64,000 bases of DNA. It comes from Escherichia coli (lineage in GTDB: Bacteria > Pseudomonadota > Gammaproteobacteria > Enterobacterales > Enterobacteriaceae). The notes under the pieces were generated by a model, which had not been told where the DNA came from, did no database searches, and was given only the letters and a program-made list of their open reading frames with translations. The translations under genes were made by a program, and so were the position numbers. Shown piece after piece: positions 4,739-52,743 of this stretch (position 1 is the first letter of the stretch; each line of letters starts with the position of its first letter). The DNA lies in NCBI RefSeq assembly GCF_003334355.1, contig NZ_QOWP01000010.1; one strand, 5' to 3'.

Positions 4739-6499
4739 TTATTTTGCCCAGAATGCTGCTTTGGCGCGCTGCAGCTTTTCGTAGGCCTTCAACAACGACT
4801 GATGTGCAGCAAACGCGTGCAGATCGCTATCTACCGGTTGCAGGCCGTAAAACGCCGCTTCGCCGCTCATTGCCGCACTGGCGGCTTCTACGGCATCTGC
4901 GCCGTACATGCGAACAAACGCATTCAGATATTGCAGCGGCTGGCGATCTTCTTCCTGTGCCAGTAATAACAACGTTTGCAGGCAGCGATAATAGTTGGCG
5001 CGTTCCGGACTAAATACTGATGAGTTAAACTCCATCGTCCATTCGGTCCAGACCAGAGCCTGTTCCAGATCGCCACCAGCCAGCGCCAGCATGGCTTTTA
5101 ATTCACCGATACGCAGGGTGTACCAACCGTTATCCGACCCGGTCGCCAGACCCAACAGCTCACGCACGCGGGTAAAGTCATCAAAACCTTCTTCATCCAG
5201 TTGCTCGATGAGGTTCAGGTAATCTTCTTTTTCCCACTCGCTGCCTGGTAGCGAAAGAATCGTTTCACGTAAATGGCTGCCCATACTGTTATTCGCGAGC
5301 CACAGATCTTCAGCCGGATAAATATCGGACATGCCAGGCACGATAATACGGCAAGCATAAACGCCCAGATGCTCGTAATCGGCAATATAAACTTCTTTAT
5401 CTTCTTTGTTGAAGATAGCCATCAGTGTGGCGAACTCTTCTTCCGTGGTGCCGGAGAAATTCCAGTCCACAAACGGATAATCGGCATCCTGCTTGAACAG
5501 GTCCCAGGAGATTAAACCGCTGGAATCGATAAAGTGCGTTTCGAGGTTGGTATGTTCAGCGACTTCTTCATCATCGAAGGTTGGCGGAGTAAACACATCC
5601 AAATCTTTCAGGCCACGACCTTGCAGCAGCTCGGTCACGGTACGTTCCAGTGCTACGCCAAAATCAGGATGCGCACCGAAAGAGGCAAAGCAGGTACCGT
5701 TAGCAGGATTGAACAGTACCACGCAAATCACCGGATACTGGCCGCCAAGCGAACCGTCATAAGCGAAGATTGGGAAACCCTCCGCTTCCAGCGTTTCGAT
5801 GGCTTCAACTACTGCTGGGTAACGCGCCAGCACGTCTGCCGGGATCTCTGGCAGGCTGATGCTTTCAGCAATAATGCGGTTTTTCACGTAGCGTTCGAAA
5901 ACTTCAGACAATCCCTGAACGCGTGCTTCGTTGCGGGTATTACCTGCGGACATACCGTTGGAGACGTACAGGTTACCAATGATATTCATCGGAATATAAA
6001 CGGTCTGATTGTCGGACTGACGCGTAAACGGCAGGCCGCAAATACCACGATCTTCGTTACCGGATTGTAGGTCAATCAGCATGCTGCCGGTCAGTTCATT
6101 CTCCGGATCATAAAACGCGCGCAGACGGTCATCGAGCAGCCCTTCTGGCACATCGTCATTTTCGGTCAGTGGGAACCATTTTTCGTTGGGATAATGCACG
6201 AACGGACCGTTGGCGATGGTTTCGCCCAGCCAGAAGTCCGCAAAAAAGTAGTTGGTTGAGAGACGCTCGAAATATTCACCGAGTGCAGAAGCCAGCGCCG
6301 CTTTCTTGGTTGCGCCTTTACCGTTGGTAAAACACAGTGCGCACTCTTTGTCGCGAATATGTACAGACCAGACGTTAGGCACGGGATTCAGCCAGGAGGC
6401 CTCTTCAATCTGAAAGCCGAGGTCTGAAAGTTTTTGCTGGAAGCGAGCGATGGAATCTTCCAGAGCGGCATCTTTGCCGGGGATAAATGTTTGCGTCAT
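4739..6499 (-). CDS. ycaO: YcaO protein (YcaO-domain ATP-dependent enzyme; S12 methylthiolation accessory factor)
   Basis: Track ORF is 597 aa; trimmed to the ATG at 6497-6499, giving MTQTFIPGKDAALEDSIARF (586 aa). Confidence 0.9.
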   Translation of the reverse strand: MTQTFIPGKDAALEDSIARFQQKLSDLGFQIEEASWLNPVPNVWSVHIRDKECALCFTNGKGATKKAALASALGEYFERLSTNYFFADFWLGETIANGPFVHYPNEKWFPLTENDDVPEGLLDDRLRAFYDPENELTGSMLIDLQSGNEDRGICGLPFTRQSDNQTVYIPMNIIGNLYVSNGMSAGNTRNEARVQGLSEVFERYVKNRIIAESISLPEIPADVLARYPAVVEAIETLEAEGFPIFAYDGSLGGQYPVICVVLFNPANGTCFASFGAHPDFGVALERTVTELLQGRGLKDLDVFTPPTFDDEEVAEHTNLETHFIDSSGLISWDLFKQDADYPFVDWNFSGTTEEEFATLMAIFNKEDKEVYIADYEHLGVYACRIIVPGMSDIYPAEDLWLANNSMGSHLRETILSLPGSEWEKEDYLNLIEQLDEEGFDDFTRVRELLGLATGSDNGWYTLRIGELKAMLALAGGDLEQALVWTEWTMEFNSSVFSPERANYYRCLQTLLLLAQEEDRQPLQYLNAFVRMYGADAVEAASAAMSGEAAFYGLQPVDSDLHAFAAHQSLLKAYEKLQRAKAAFWAK

Positions 6500-34385: not shown

Positions 34386-35576
34386 TTACAGCACTGCCAC
34401 AATCGCTTCGCACAGCGGAGCCATGTTATCTGGTGTCATCCCGGCCACATTTACGCGACCAGAAGCAACCGCATATACGCCAAACTCTTCGCGCAGACGC
34501 AGCACTTGTTCTTTTGTCAGGCCACTGAAGGAGAACATGCCGTTCTGTTTGATGATAAAGCTGAAGTCGCGGTTTGCGCCTTTTTCCTGCAGCGTATTGA
34601 CGAACAACTGACGCATACGCTGAATACGCTGGCGCATATCAGTCAGCTCTTGTTCCCAAATCGCACGTAACGCATCGTTGCTCAGGATGGTGGCAACAAC
34701 AGAAGCGCCGTGTGCTGGTGGGTTAGAGTAGTTAGCGCGAATCGCCGCTTTCATTTGGCTGAATGCGCGATCAACGGTTTCACTGTCGGCAGCAACCAGA
34801 GTACAAGCGCCAACACGCTCGTTGTACAGGCCAAAGTTTTTAGAGTAGGAACTGGCAACAATCAGCTCTTTATGCATAGCCGCGAAAGCGCGCAGTCCTT
34901 CAGCATCTTCTTCCAGACCACGGGCAAAACCCTGGTAAGCGAAGTCAAACAGCGGTAACCAGCCTTTCTCAACGGAGAGTTGTGCCAGTGTTTGCCATTG
35001 TTCCAGCGTAGGGTCGATACCGGTTGGGTTATGGCAGCAGCCATGGAACAGCACTACGTCGCCAGCCTGAGCTTCATTCAGGCTGTTAATCAGTGCATCG
35101 AAGTCAAGAGTGTGATTTTCCGCATCATAATAAGCGTATTCACGAACTTCCAGACCTGCAGAGTTAAAGACGCTCTTATGGTTCGGCCAGCTTGGGTTGC
35201 TCACCCACACACGCTTAACGCTGGTATTTTTTGCCAGGAAATCGGCAGCCACGCGTAGTGCGCCAGTGCCCCCCGGAGTCTGTGCCGTGCGAGCACGTTT
35301 GTCATTGATCAGGGCGCTACCTTTACCAAACAGCAGTTCCTGAGTGCAGCGACCAAATTCAGGGATGCCGTCAATGCCGAGGTAATTTTTGGTGGTTTCA
35401 TTTTCGAGCAGATACTGTTCAGCCTTTTTCACGCTGGTCAGTACCGGGGTTTTGCCCGTCTCATCTTTATAGACACCAATCCCGAGGTTAATTTTGCCGG
35501 GACGTTCATCGGCACGAAACAGATCGGCCAGGCCCAGAATCGGGTCGGCAGGAGCGGCGGTAATGTTCTCAAACAT
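34386..35576 (-). CDS. aspC: aspartate aminotransferase
   Basis: 396-aa ORF; [36 protein letters not shown] recognised. Confidence 0.97.
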
Positions 35577-35705
35577 GACGAGGTTCCATTATGGTTACAG
35601 AAGGGAAGTCCGCTATCAGGGTAACGGGAGATTTACAAAATTCCAACTATTACTGATGAAAACTCAGGCTGTTTTTGCAAGACGTGAGATTGCTCTGGAA
35701 GGTAT

Positions 35706-35735
35706 AAAAAAAACAGGACCAAAGTCCTGTTTTTT
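35706..35735 (-). terminator. ompF rho-independent terminator (bidirectional-looking)
   Basis: aaaaaaa acaggac caaa gtcctgt ttttt: perfect 7-bp stem flanked by an A-run and a T-run. Confidence 0.65.
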
Positions 35736-35760
35736 CGGCATTTAACAAAGAGGTGTGCTA

Positions 35761-36849
35761 TTAGAACTGGTAAACGATACCCACAGCAACGGTGTCGTCT
35801 GAACCTACGCCCAGTTTGTTGTCAGAATCGATCTGGTTGATGATGTAGTCAACATAGGTGGACATATTTTTGTTGAAGTAGTAGGTTGCGCCCACTTCAA
35901 AGTAGTTCACCAGATCAACATCACCGATACCTTCTACGTCTTTCGCTTTAGATTTGGTGTAAGCGATGGACGGACGCAGACCGAAATCGAACTGGTATTG
36001 CGCAACTAACAGAACGTCTTGCGTTTTGTTGGCGAAGCCGCTGGTGTTTGTAAATTTATTAGTAATCGGCGTAGCGTTACGGGTTTCACCGTAGTTCGCT
36101 GCCAGGTAGATGTTGTTCGCGTCGTACTTCAGACCAGTAGCCCACTGTTCAGCTTTTTTACCGTTGCCAAGAGGTTGAGCTTCTTGCAGGTTGGTACGGT
36201 CAGCTGCACCATAAGCACCAACGATACCAAAGCCTTCGTATTCGTAGCTGATAGAACCGCCAACACCGTCGCCGTTAGAGCGGCGTGCAGTGTCACGCTC
36301 GTTTTTACCCAGGTACTGAACAGCGAAGTTCAGGCCATCAACCAGACCAAAGAAGTTGGAGTTACGATAGGTAGCAACGCCGCCAACACGACCAACGAAG
36401 AAGTCATCGCTGTATGCAGTATCACCACCAAATTCTGGCAGCATATCGGTGTAACCCAGTGCATCATAAACCACACCGTAGTTACGGCCGTAATCGAAAG
36501 AACCAATGTCAGCGTATTTAAGACCCGCGAATGCCAGACGCGTTTTGTTACCAGTTTGAGCGTCAGCGCCTTCAGAGTTGTTACCCTGGAAGTTATATTC
36601 CCACTGACCATAACCGGTCAGATCGGAATTGATTTGTGTTTCCCCTTTAAAACCAAGACGGGCATAAGTTTTGTCGCCGTTTCCGCCGTAACTGTTTACA
36701 CCATTGTCTTTAGAAAAATAATGCAGACCGACAGCTTTACCGTACAGATCTACTTTGTTGCCATCTTTGTTATAGATTTCTGCAGCGTTTGCAGTACCTG
36801 CTACTAACAGAGCAGGGACGATCACTGCCAGAATATTGCGCTTCATCAT
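35761..36849 (-). CDS. ompF: outer membrane porin F
   Basis: 362-aa ORF; [38 protein letters not shown] ... VGIVYQF recognised. Confidence 0.97.
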
Positions 36850-36959
36850 TATTTATTACCCTCATGGTTTTTTTTATGACACCTGCCACTGCCGTCAATA
36901 AGTTCTGTCAATAAAAATTTACGGAGCTATTGATGAGAGTTTGGTGTCTTTATGTGTCT

Positions 36960-37060
36960 GCAGGCATCTTTCCATTCAAACTAACGTTTCGCTACCGTGA
37001 AAGTGCTACAAAGATAAAGATTTGGTTTCAAAAAGAAAAAATATGTAACCAAAAGTAAAA
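36960..37060 (-). promoter_or_regulatory. ompF promoter with OmpR binding sites (F1-F3 region)
   Basis: Minus-strand sequence TTTACTTTTGGTTACATATTTTTTCTTTTTGAAACCAAATCTTTATCTTTGTAGCAC (complement of 37005-37059) matches the OmpR-box region of the ompF promoter as I recall it. Confidence 0.7.
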
Positions 37061-37410
37061 TTTAAGGAACTTTGTGAACACCGTCATATTTCCATAGAAG
37101 CGTGATGATATTTACAGCAATTTTTATCTATTTATATGATTTCCTTATATTTAAATTAACTAAACGGAAATTTTGTTTCTGATGGAAACTTTATCGACCT
37201 GGCACTAAATCCTCGTTCAGACATCCAGAATGCCAAAAAATAGTATGAAAATTGTGCTATCAGCTAAGAAAAAACTAATCCGCAATAAGAATCCAGGTTA
37301 TTTTTTGTGCGTAAATGTTGCAATGTAATATTCCGTAACAGGATGATCGTTATGGCGGGGTTGCAAATAGATTGCTTGACTTAACAAACAGATAACTTGA
37401 CAGAAAGGAT

Positions 37411-37436
37411 AAAAAAGAGCCAGCAGGCGCTGGCTC
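37411..37436 (-). terminator. asnS rho-independent terminator
   Basis: aaaaaa gagccagc aggc gctggctc: perfect 8-bp stem; the A-run on + gives a U-run after the hairpin on the minus strand; 15 nt beyond the asnS stop. Confidence 0.65.
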
Positions 37437-37450
37437 TTTGAGGAAGAAAA

Positions 37451-38851
37451 TCAGAAGCTGGCGTTGCGCGGAGTACGTGGGAACGGAATCACATCACGCA
37501 CGTTTTGCACGCCAGTTACGTAAGCAATCAGGCGTTCAAAACCAAGACCGAAACCTGAATGCGGAACAGTACCGTAGCGACGCAGATCGCGATACCACCA
37601 GTAATCTTCTTTATTCAGGCCCATTTCCAGCATACGCTCGTCCAGAACGTCCAGACGTTCTTCACGCTGGGAGCCACCAATGATCTCACCGATGCCCGGA
37701 GCCAGAACGTCCATAGCCGCAACGGTTTTACCGTCTTCGTTGAGGCGCATATAGAACGCTTTAATATCTTTCGGATAGTTTTTAACCACTACCGGTGCTT
37801 TAAAGTGTTCTTCCGCCAGATAACGCTCATGCTCAGAAGAGAGATCGACGCCCCAGTAAACCGGGTTTTCAAACTTCCTGCCGCAGTTTTCGAGAATGGT
37901 CACTGCGTCGGTGTAATCCACCTGCGCGAAATCGGCCTCAATGAAGCGTTCCAGACGTGAAACGGCATCTTTATCTACGCGTTCAGCGAAGAATTTCATG
38001 TCGTCTGCGCGTTCTTCGAGAACCGCTTTGAAGACATATTTCAGCATGGCTTCAGCCAGACCCGCGATATCGTTCAGGTTAGCAAACGCCACTTCCGGCT
38101 CCAGCATCCAGAACTCCGCCAGGTGACGGCTGGTGTTGGAGTTTTCAGCACGGAAAGTCGGGCCGAAGGTATAAATTTTGGATAATGCGCAAGCGTAGGT
38201 TTCGCCGTTCAACTGGCCAGATACGGTCAGGAAAGACTCTTTACCAAAGAAGTCTTTGTCGAAATCCACTTTGCCCTGATCGTTACGCGGCAGATTTTCC
38301 AGATCCAGCGTAGAAACGCGGAACATTTCGCCAGCCCCTTCGGTATCAGACGCAGTAATCAGTGGCGTTGAAACCCAGAAGAATCCCTGCTCGTTAAAGA
38401 AGCGATGCAGCGCCTGCGCCAGCGTATGGCGAACGCGCGCGACGGCACCAATCAGGTTTGTGCGCGGACGCAGGTGAGCGACTTCACGCAGATACTCAAT
38501 GCTGTGGCGTTTTGCCGCCATCGGGTAAGTGTCTGGATCTTCAACCCAACCAGCAACTTCAACCTTGCTGGCCTGAATTTCAAATTGTTGCCCCTGGCCC
38601 GGCGACGCCACGACTTTACCCGTCACAATGACCGAGCAACCGGTGGTCAGACGCAGGACGTCTTCATTGTAATTGGGCAGAGAATTATTGATGACAGCCT
38701 GTACAGGATCAAAGCAGGAACCGTCATAAACGGCGAGGAAGGAGATGCCAGCTTTTGAATCTCGGCGGGTACGTACCCATCCGCGTACGGTGACTTCGCT
38801 GTCAACGGCTACGCGGCCCTGGAGTACGTCGGCTACAGGCACAACGCTCAT
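37451..38851 (-). CDS. asnS: asparaginyl-tRNA synthetase
   Basis: Track ORF (481 aa) begins at a GTG; trimmed to the ATG at 38849-38851, giving [30 protein letters not shown] (466 aa). Confidence 0.95.
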
Positions 38852-38986
38852 AATATTCTCTCTGTTAATAGTCGGAAAAAATAAACACTTGTCCACCCGT
38901 AAATGGGGGGATACCTATGTTACCTGGCATCTGCAATCAGACAAGCAGAATTCGCAAATGCAGCGAAAGATTTCGGAATTAAAGGT

Positions 38987-39011
38987 AAAAAAAGGGAGCC
39001 GATTAGCTCCC
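38987..39011 (-). terminator. pncB rho-independent terminator
   Basis: aaaaaaa gggagc cgatta gctccc: perfect 6-bp stem; A-run on + gives a U-run on the minus strand. Confidence 0.55.
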
Positions 39012-39019
39012 TGATGATA

Positions 39020-40222
39020 TTAACTGGCTTTTTTAATATGCGGAAGGTCGAACGCTTTGCGCAGCGCCCGAACAAACGCTTTATCGTGGCAGATAGTTTT
39101 GCCAGGGCTGTCAGAAAGTTTCGCCACCGGTTTACCGTTACACTCTACCAACTTAATCACAATATTCAGGGGTTTTACCTGGGGGATATCGCAGGTCAGG
39201 CGAGTCCCAATACCAAAACTTAATTGCACGCGGGAAGAGAAGTGGCGGTATAGCTCAACCGCTTTGCGTAAATCCAGATTGTCAGAGAAAACCAGCGTTT
39301 TACTCTGTGGATCAATTCCCAGCTTTTCATAATGTGCAATGGCTTTTTCACCCCATTCAACCGGGTCGCCAGAGTCATGACGCAGGCCCTGATACCGACT
39401 AGCGAACTCGACACCGAAATCACGCAGGAAAGCATCCATAGTGATGCAGTCGGTTAATGCAATGCCAAGTTGGTCGGGATACTCTTCCAGCCAGGCAGCA
39501 AGTGCAGCTCGCTGGCTGTTGGCTAGATCCGGGCTGATTTGCTGATGTGCCTGGAACCATTCGTGTGCCTGTGTTCCCATCGGCGTGAGGGAAAGCCGAC
39601 GCGCCAGATCGTAGTTGCTGGTGCCCACAAACCAGGATTCCTGTTGCAGACGCTTAACGATGGTTTCTTGTACTTCGCGAGAAAAACGGCGACGGGTGCC
39701 AAAATCCATCAGATGGAAGCGCGACATATCAAGACCGGCGGTTAACGCCGAGAAGTCGACTAATTTGCTTTCCAGCGTGTCGAGGGCTTGCGCAACGTCG
39801 GCCTGCGGTGAGCGATAGCGATGTACCATTTCACTGATAACCGCCAGCAAAGGAACTTCCCAGAGGATGACTTCACGCCACGGGCCGCTTAAACGAATAT
39901 CCAGCTTGCCATTATCGTTGGACACGGTGACTTGTTCCGGGTTAAAGCGGAACTCGCGTAACCAGTTAAGATAGTCGGCCTTAAAGAAAGGCAGGGCAGA
40001 AAGCCACTGATATTCATCATCCTGCAGGCGCAGGTGCTGCATCGCCTGAACCTGTTCACGAATAGCATCGGCATAAATACCCAGCAGATCGTCACCTCGG
40101 CAACGAAACTCCGCCGCGACATGCACATCGTAATAGTGATGAAACACGGCTTGCTGCATATGCAACTTATAAGCATCTGTATCCAGCAACGAGTGCAGAA
40201 CAGGAGAAGCGAATTGTGTCAT
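39020..40222 (-). CDS. pncB: nicotinate phosphoribosyltransferase
   Basis: Track ORF is 416 aa; trimmed to the ATG at 40220-40222 ([27 protein letters not shown], 400 aa). Confidence 0.95.
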
Positions 40223-43142: not shown

Positions 43143-43910
43143 TTACCCCTGTTTTCTCAGGCGAGTTTCAGACTCACCACGCTGCATTACCCGTTGCAAC
43201 ACTTCCGCTTCCAGCTCCGCTAATCGCACCGACCCTAACCGGCGCGGACGGGGGATATCCACCGTCAAATCCAGACCAATTTTTCCCTCTTCAATTAACA
43301 ACACCCGGTCAGCCATTGCTACCGCTTCGCTCACATCATGCGTCACCAACAGTACGGTAAAGCCGTGCTCCTGCCAAAGTGACACAATCAAATCCTGCAT
43401 CTCGAGTCGCGTTAAGGCATCCAGCGCACCGAGCGGTTCATCAAGCAACAATAAACCCGGTCGATGAATCAACGCTCTTGCCAGCGCCACTCGCTGTTTC
43501 TGCCCGCCAGAAAGTGCGGCAGGCCATTCCCCGGCGCGATTCTCCAGTCCTACCGCAGCCAACGCTCGACGTGCGGCATCGCGCCACTGGCCTTTAAGGC
43601 CTAACCCAACGTTATCAATCACCGATTTCCACGGTAGCAGACGCGCATCCTGAAACATCATTCGCGTGTCTTCCTGAATTTCAGCCAGCGGTGTGGTGCC
43701 CGCTAACACATCGCCTGCGGTTGGCGTTTCCAGACCTGCCAGCAGGCGCAGCAGGGTACTTTTGCCACCACCGCTGCGGCCCACCACCGCCACAAACTGA
43801 CCTGCCGGAATATGTAAATCCAGTTGGTTCAGGACGATATTTTCCGCGTAATGTTTGCTTACTGCATTGAGCAACAATGGTGTGCCCTGGTTCAGACGAG
43901 CAGTATTCAT
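43143..43910 (-). CDS. ssuB: aliphatic sulfonate ABC transporter ATP-binding protein
   Basis: 255-aa ORF; Walker [10 protein letters not shown], signature LSGGQKQR. Confidence 0.93.

Positions 43911-49081: not shown

Positions 49082-52743
<3,662 letters not shown>

Follow-up and report, generated by a model that had tools for sequence, protein, structure and literature searches.

Results

The asnS-ompF gap is the ompF control region

What does the long AT-rich stretch between asnS and ompF contain, and how much of it, especially of the half distal to the ompF promoter, can be accounted for by what is known of ompF control? In the window analyzed here, a 64,000-nt (64-kb) stretch of Escherichia coli DNA, positions 36850-37450 coincide exactly with the 601-bp asnS-ompF intergenic gap, with the ompF start codon ending at 36849 and the asnS stop codon beginning at 37451, both on the minus strand. 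The open reading frames and their translations define the genes around the gap as follows.

34386-35576, minus strand: aspC
35761-36849, minus strand: ompF
37451-38851, minus strand: asnS

The gene order aspC-ompF-asnS-pncB, all on the minus strand, agrees with the RefSeq annotation of the matching loci in K-12, ATCC 8739, and other genomes. The window as a whole is colinear with E. coli ATCC 8739 at 99.6-99.97% identity, and by the annotation of that genome the asnS-ompF gap is the longest intergenic gap in the window (601 bp), followed by ycaO-focA (405 bp) and elfA-ssuE (355 bp); an earlier note on this DNA had ranked it among the two longest non-coding stretches. The GC content of the gap is 34%, compared with 51% for the window. 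Of 5426 complete E. coli genomes, 5425 contain the gap, with identities of 95-99.8%, and it carries no annotation there. The best-matching genomes reached 99.7-99.8%, and K-12 was 97.3% identical over the full length. Both the gene order and the 97.3% identity to K-12 point to the ompF regulatory region, and the identification of the 601 bp as the ompF upstream region in the earlier note is confirmed. We are highly confident that the gap, read on the minus strand, holds the promoter, regulatory sites, and leader of ompF, an E. coli porin gene, and that it works according to the loop model described below. The identification itself is of an already known, textbook region.

Throughout, position -N denotes window position 36959+N on the ompF strand, with the transcription start at 36959. 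The gap differs from K-12 by ~16 substitutions and one 1-bp indel, which cluster just after the asnS stop codon and at about -316 to -301, -291, -245 to -236, -155, and -130; none falls within the OmpR sites F1-F4, the CRP box, or the -10 element. The locus and its architecture are thus those of the K-12 ompF regulatory region, with F1-F3, F4, the CRP box, the IHF-like box, the -10 element, the Shine-Dalgarno sequence, and the MicF target shared base for base.

Natural disruptions of the locus were also encountered. Some E. coli genomes carry an IS1 element inside the asnS-ompF intergenic region, and one E. coli locus lacks ompF and has an IS200C element in the interval from asnS to aspC. SNPs of the asnS-ompF region have been used as host-source markers (PMC5007776).

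Core promoter, OmpR activator sites, and CRP box

The transcription start was placed at 36959, 110 nt upstream of the ATG, from the distance of an OmpR ChIP-exo peak and the MG1655 ompF coordinates, assuming a +777 offset between genome versions. The promoter-proximal elements are arranged as follows.

36959-36994, minus strand: core promoter, with the start at 36959, the -10 element AAAGAT at 36966-36971, and a poor -35 element near 36989-36994
37000-37019, minus strand: OmpR activator site F3, identical to K-12
37020-37039, minus strand: OmpR activator site F2, identical to K-12
37040-37059, minus strand: OmpR activator site F1, identical to K-12 (F1-F3 together span -100 to -41)
37073-37088, minus strand: CRP box TATGA-CGGTGT-TCACA (TATGACGGTGTTCACA), centered at -121.5, directly upstream of F1

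The K-12 ChIP-exo peak in question spans 986373-986432, and its center is given as 87.5 bp upstream of where ompF transcription begins (PMC5438342 supplement). The -10 element is invariant in 13 Enterobacteriaceae sequences. The earlier note had recognized an F1-F3 cluster at 37005-37059; this assignment stands, with the full extent being 37000-37059, and matches to the OmpR consensus occur in the cluster at -100 to -85 and -90 to -75. As the consensus we used a ChIP-derived repeat, GTTACANNNNGTTACA (PMC5438342), and counted matches with no more than two mismatches. Four such matches were found in the 64 kb, two of them in the gap and on the ompF strand, one in F1 (37044-37059) and one in the distal site F4 (37324-37339). 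Two or more matches were reached in 0.25% of composition-matched shuffles of the gap. Two further patterns overlap the cluster: a CpxR-like GTAAC-N5-GTAAA on the bottom strand over F1 (37045-37059) and an IHF-like core with one mismatch at 37015-37027 (-68 to -56).

The CRP box, which deviates from TGTGAN6TCACA at one position, is one of four such matches in the 64 kb. Its mean pairwise identity is 0.81 among 11 Enterobacteriaceae genera, and its position is kept across the Enterobacterales. In the Y. pestis ompF orthologue, CRP gives a DNase I footprint at -131 to -109 that abuts the OmpR sites (PMC3050693), and genomic SELEX also recovered ompF, already known as a target of CRP (PMC3105977).

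On this arrangement, the weak promoter starting at 36959 would depend on phosphorylated OmpR (OmpR-P) bound in tandem to F1-F2-F3 (-100 to -41), CRP would bind just upstream of these sites at -121.5, and CpxR could compete at F1. OmpR, IHF, and CRP binding as well as the loop are taken from the literature on K-12, and it is at the level of sequence that their sites are recognized here.

A distal OmpR site and the repression-loop model

F4, the weak repressor site of the loop model, reportedly lies at about -380 to -350 (Huang et al., 1994), which would correspond to the following interval.

37310-37339 (-380 to -351), minus strand: distal OmpR site F4, GTTACGGAATATTACATTGCAACATTTACG

Within it, the motif scan found the consensus match GTTACGGAATATTACA at 37324-37339 (-380 to -365), with two mismatches to GTTACANNNNGTTACA. 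A candidate OmpR site is thus present in the distal region and inside the reported F4 interval, in line with the DNA looping to a distal OmpR site that the earlier note had envisaged. F4 is the same in this strain as in K-12, and most Enterobacteriaceae genera retain its core, TGTTAC.

Four OmpR sites have been described at E. coli ompF, with the weak F4 lying ~260 bp upstream of F1-F2-F3 and a loop blocking transcription at high osmolarity (PMC3050692); F4-dependent loop repression at high osmolarity is likewise stated elsewhere (PMC10581057, PMC543474). According to this model, the larger amount of OmpR-P present at high osmolarity would also fill the weak distal F4 (-380 to -351). OmpR bound at F4 and at F1-F3 would then interact, looping out ~260-280 bp of AT-rich, intrinsically curved DNA that contains an IHF-type bending site, and the loop would shut the ompF promoter off.

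Other observations on F4 were less favorable. A small position weight matrix built from F1-F3 and C1-C3, the OmpR sites of ompC-micF, scored F4 below background, and its top hits did not exceed those in shuffles; with so few sites the matrix is uninformative. The poor score is consistent with a weak site and lends F4 no independent support. In the K-12 ChIP-exo table, the one peak for ompF lies over F1-F2, and F4 has no entry (PMC5438342 supplement). The F4-to-F1 spacing, taken as 280-291 bp, does not correspond to an integral number of helical turns, which counts against the loop as the best explanation; no report of helical-phase dependence for ompF was found in the literature that we looked at.

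An IHF-like box and predicted DNA curvature

The best-conserved distal element resembles an IHF site.

37127-37155 (-196 to -168), minus strand: IHF-like box, TTAAATATAAGGAAATCATATAAATAGAT

Its mean pairwise identity is 0.79 among 11 genera. In E. coli the box matches the IHF core WATCAANNNNTTR only with two mismatches (at -188 to -170), and the cross-genus consensus, read by eye from the alignments, matches it with one (TATGAAnnnnTTA, bottom strand). Erwiniaceae and Pectobacteriaceae have the box as well, equally far from the promoter. IHF is reported to bind upstream of ompF and to be required for the negative osmoregulation of the gene (PMC4393010).

The IHF-like box adjoins the strongest bend predicted in the gap, at 37122. 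Curvature was calculated with a wedge model, with roll, tilt, and twist values after Bolshoy et al. (1991); the controls behaved as expected, with 26 deg/turn for phased A6 tracts and 4.5 deg/turn for out-of-phase tracts. The maximum predicted for the entire 64-kb window, 22.3 deg/turn, falls at 37122 (-163), against a window mean of 6.2 and a standard deviation of 3.5, and a second peak of 16.8 deg/turn falls at -276. Across 13 sequences, the bin from -300 to -280 is the most consistently curved, with a mean predicted value of 13.1 deg/turn, and it is curved in most genera. Of the two features on which the earlier note had let its reading depend, the distal OmpR match is present as described above, and curvature is predicted by this model, at the window maximum.

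The phasing of A-tracts was less pronounced. The earlier note had described the distal region as AT-rich with phased A-tracts. A-tracts show a periodicity near 10-10.75 bp in the distal part (-451 to -100), and 1.4% of dinucleotide shuffles attained the phasing score of this part (maximum over 10-11 bp), compared with 4.4% when the gap was taken as a whole. Phasing is thus modestly above chance, in sub-windows that we chose ourselves.

Gap length and spacing across the Enterobacterales

With AsnS as the probe, the locus was retrieved for each species from a single genome. In every Enterobacterales locus that we looked at, asnS is followed by a porin gene, and the gaps between the two genes are of two types.

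Enterobacteriaceae (12 loci and the window, ~11 genera): gap of 591-618 bp, except Mangrovibacter (544 bp) and Superficieibacter (786 bp, with a repeat-like insert)
Erwiniaceae, Pectobacteriaceae, Yersiniaceae, and Morganellaceae (13 loci, 10 genera): gap of 245-324 bp, mostly 294-306 bp

The short type is seen for instance in Yersinia, Serratia, Erwinia, Pantoea, Pectobacterium, and Photorhabdus. Its alignment to E. coli covers the 300 bp nearest the promoter, namely the leader, the -10 element, F1-F3, the CRP-type box, and the IHF-like box, ATAAGnAATTCATATA. It differs from the E. coli type not only in length but also in where the asnS terminator lies. In short-type gaps the ATAAGnAATTCATATA box lies in the asnS 3' UTR, between the asnS stop codon and the terminator, so that the terminator stands between the IHF-like and CRP boxes, while the distance of the box from the promoter is as in E. 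coli. F4 and three further conserved boxes (boxes 3-5, described below) are absent from the short-type gaps of the 10 genera sampled in the four families.

In the Enterobacteriaceae, an extra module of ~300 bp stands between the asnS stop codon and the IHF-like box, and consists of the terminator, F4, and further DNA. The old terminator position is occupied there by non-hairpin sequence of equal length. The terminator within the module has the following form in the window.

37406-37439, minus strand: asnS intrinsic terminator, with an 11-bp perfect stem, a 4-nt loop, and a T-tail, 12 nt past the asnS stop codon

Its hairpin (37414-37439), detected by a terminator scan and an inverted-repeat search, is 100% complementary and is kept in the Enterobacteriaceae. 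The 786-bp gap of Superficieibacter electus is due to a ~190-bp GC-rich palindromic insert, similar to REP/BIME elements, between the asnS stop codon and the terminator (positions 5402-5630 of that locus).

An alignment of 13 Enterobacteriaceae sequences from ~11 genera consists of conserved islands divided by nearly random sequence: mean pairwise identity among 11 genera is 0.52 for F4 (-382 to -342) and 0.27-0.37 for the spacers between the islands. The distances in the same 13 sequences were as follows.

asnS terminator to F4: 50-80 bp, sd 8.1
F4 to F1: 286-292 bp, sd 1.6
box 3 to box 4: 29-31 bp, sd 0.49
box 4 to box 5: 26-27 bp, sd 0.38
box 5 to IHF-like box: 84-88 bp, sd 0.93
IHF-like box to F1: 99 bp in 13 of 13, sd 0

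With only 36-37% identity left in the spacers, their sequence is free while their length is fixed, as a looping or phasing constraint predicts. Together with the predicted curvature, this conserved spacing fits the published model in which OmpR-P would bind at F4 and form a repression loop. The confinement of the F4 module to one family, the frozen spacing, and the three conserved boxes are the new observations made here; they sharpen the tests that can be made of the loop model and leave the overall picture unchanged. We infer that the ~300 bp of the distal half form a module peculiar to the Enterobacteriaceae and that selection acts on its length, since the geometry of the loop matters.

The distribution of the module matches what has been published for Yersinia, which lacks F4 and in which ompF is not repressed at high osmolarity, with Y. 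pestis ompF being induced under that condition (PMC3050692). As a tentative and rather doubtful scenario, the Enterobacteriaceae may have acquired the module at their base, as a discrete insertion that separated the asnS stop codon from the older IHF-like box. Boxes 3-5, at their invariant spacing, would then serve as factor sites or shape elements needed for the loop, and this gain may have converted ompF from an osmo-induced gene, as in Yersinia, into an osmo-repressed one, as in E. coli.

Three further conserved boxes in the distal half

The earlier note had regarded the distal 400 bp as largely unexplained. This no longer applies: published work together with the pattern of conservation accounts for F4, the IHF-like box, and the CRP box, and only three conserved boxes are left to which we could assign no factor.

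37275-37290 (-332 to -317), minus strand: box 3, TCTTATTGCGGATTAG, column majority ~0.8 in 13 sequences
37248-37261 (-302 to -289), minus strand: box 4, AATAGCACAATTTT, within the stretch for which curvature is predicted most consistently across genera
37216-37234 (-275 to -257), minus strand: box 5, GGCATTCTGGATGTCTGAA, an imperfect dyad, G.CAT.C.G.ATG.C

Among 11 genera, mean pairwise identity is 0.55 for box 3 (TCTTATTGCG..TTAG), 0.64 for box 4 (ATAGCACAATTTT), and 0.58 for box 5 (GGCAtTCtGGAtGtC). Pattern scans for OmpR, CRP, IHF, CpxR, RstA, PhoB, Fur, and Lrp gave no match that explains the boxes; hits to the CpxR, RstA, PhoB, Fur, and Lrp patterns lay only over F1 or F4 or were weak. 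A sigma-54 promoter, a mar/sox/rob box, an OxyR site, and a Fis site were also considered for boxes 4-5 and dropped as poor matches by eye. A literal literature search with six sequence strings from the gap found no paper.

We considered whether boxes 3-5 could be sites for one or more further regulators or architectural proteins that build or tune the loop, a reading that extends the loop model and that we regard as a real possibility without favoring it. The boxes form three conserved islands at fixed spacings of 29-31 and 26-27 bp, box 5 reads as an imperfect 15-bp dyad, and box 4 coincides with the predicted curvature peak that is most conserved across genera. However, none of the eight patterns scanned fits them, the sequence-string search returned no literature on their positions, and their conservation could instead reflect sequence-dependent DNA shape.

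It is also conceivable, but in our judgment improbable, that only F4, the IHF site, the CRP box, and F1-F3 matter, and that the other distal DNA, boxes 3-5 included, is neutral spacer that owes its conservation and constant length to shared ancestry. The lack of a fit to any known factor motif tested would agree with this, as would the identity of the boxes (0.55-0.64), which is lower than the ~0.8 of the IHF-like and CRP boxes, and the origin of all 13 sequences from one family. Yet in these same sequences identity has fallen to 27-37% in the neighboring spacers, and up to 30 bp have been gained or lost between the terminator and F4, while box-to-box distances vary with an sd of <1 bp. Neutral decay that scrambles sequence but fixes length in one part only is hard to explain without selection on spacing.

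Finally, although the distal region is long and conserved in patches and carries a 32-codon ATG ORF on the plus strand (37230-37328) that overlaps boxes 3 and 4 and reaches into the upstream edge of box 5, we consider it most improbable that it encodes an unannotated small RNA or small protein, given that positions 35000-39500 gave no Rfam match even at E = 1, that on neither strand does its folding energy differ from that of shuffled sequence (z = -0.13 and +0.09), that it has no internal terminator and no promoter-like sites above chance, that its conservation runs in blocks rather than codon periods, and that this ORF, the only ATG ORF there, is not conserved across genera, losing its start in E. 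albertii and containing stop codons in most genera. The loop model, with F4 as the distal OmpR site, is the reading that we retain for the distal half.

Close to the asnS end of the gap, just downstream of the asnS terminator, lies a pair of direct repeats.

37364-37380 and 37385-37401, minus strand: two 17-bp direct repeats (GTCAAGnnATCTnTTTG), 82% identical and exactly 21 bp apart

They are kept in E. albertii and were seen only in Escherichia, the other genera not being alignable here. An origin of the distal module by duplication was rejected, since blastn found no second copy in E. coli genomes and internal repeats are short and weak except for this 17-bp pair.

The ompF leader and MicF pairing

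Downstream of the transcription start, the gap contains the ompF leader, the end of which overlaps the target of the MicF antisense RNA.

36850-36958, minus strand: ompF 5' leader, 110 nt, with 83% pairwise identity across genera
36839-36866, minus strand: MicF target (-17 to +11 of the AUG), where MicF nt 1-34 pair with the Shine-Dalgarno sequence, the start codon, and the codons just after it

The leader is conserved across the order Enterobacterales and well beyond the MicF pairing site. It contains a predicted long-range GACAC/GUGUC pairing that almost never varies and so offers no covariation.

The identity of the MicF sequence was confirmed by its position between ompC and rcsD in E. coli genomes and by its match to Rfam RF00033 (114 bits). 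Full-length MicF gave a long spurious duplex with the leader that was no better than shuffles (z = -1.2), so it was replaced by MicF nt 1-35. With this 5' end, RNAduplex predicted an energy of -27.4 kcal/mol for the ompF target (z = -4.9 versus shuffled MicF), tied for the best of 2130 window tiles. The predicted pairing at -17 to +11 agrees with the description of the 5' UTR as a MicF target in the earlier note. Tiles at 43721-43840 (minus strand), 50521-50640 (plus), and 51421-51600 (plus) scored -25.6 to -26.7 kcal/mol, and these near-equal values mean that predicted energy alone does not single out the target in AT-rich DNA. Following transcription from the OmpR-dependent promoter, the 110-nt leader would be controlled at the level of translation by MicF pairing across the ribosome-binding site.

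One leader position sets this strain apart. At 36926 (minus strand, leader position +34), the strain carries C where K-12, the best-matching E. coli genomes, and 12 of 12 other Enterobacteriaceae carry T (ATAGTTCCG -> ATAGCTCCG). Of 5418 E. coli genomes, only 1 matched a 65-nt query around this base with an identity of at least 99%, and the base falls in a hairpin loop of the consensus leader fold. The variant may be a private mutation or a sequencing error.

Comparison with related systems

A related arrangement is that of the ompC-micF region, which like ompF has three tandem 20-bp OmpR sites at about -100 to -40, a weak promoter, and control by OmpR/EnvZ and IHF; we verified the sequences of its sites, C1-C3, in a fetched E. 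coli locus. Unlike ompF, it is without a distal fourth site and without loop repression, and ompC is activated at high osmolarity.

Classical loop systems, such as araBAD O2-I1, gal OE-OI with HU, and lac O1-O3, resemble ompF in that a weak distal operator acts together with promoter-proximal sites over a distance of a few hundred bp, that a bending protein or intrinsic curvature helps, and that spacing is constrained. In contrast with these systems, a single response regulator at ompF acts as both activator and repressor, depending on the number of sites filled, and it is for this dual action that ompF is a textbook case. OmpF levels also influence antibiotic entry. What the comparison of genomes usefully adds to this known system is the family-specific F4 module, spacers frozen in length but free in sequence, and three conserved boxes, which together enable direct, cheap tests of the long-assumed loop model and point to a possible binding place for an extra factor. 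As judged from colinearity with ATCC 8739, ihfB, the gene for the IHF beta subunit, lies in the same 64-kb window at ~13695-13979 on the plus strand.
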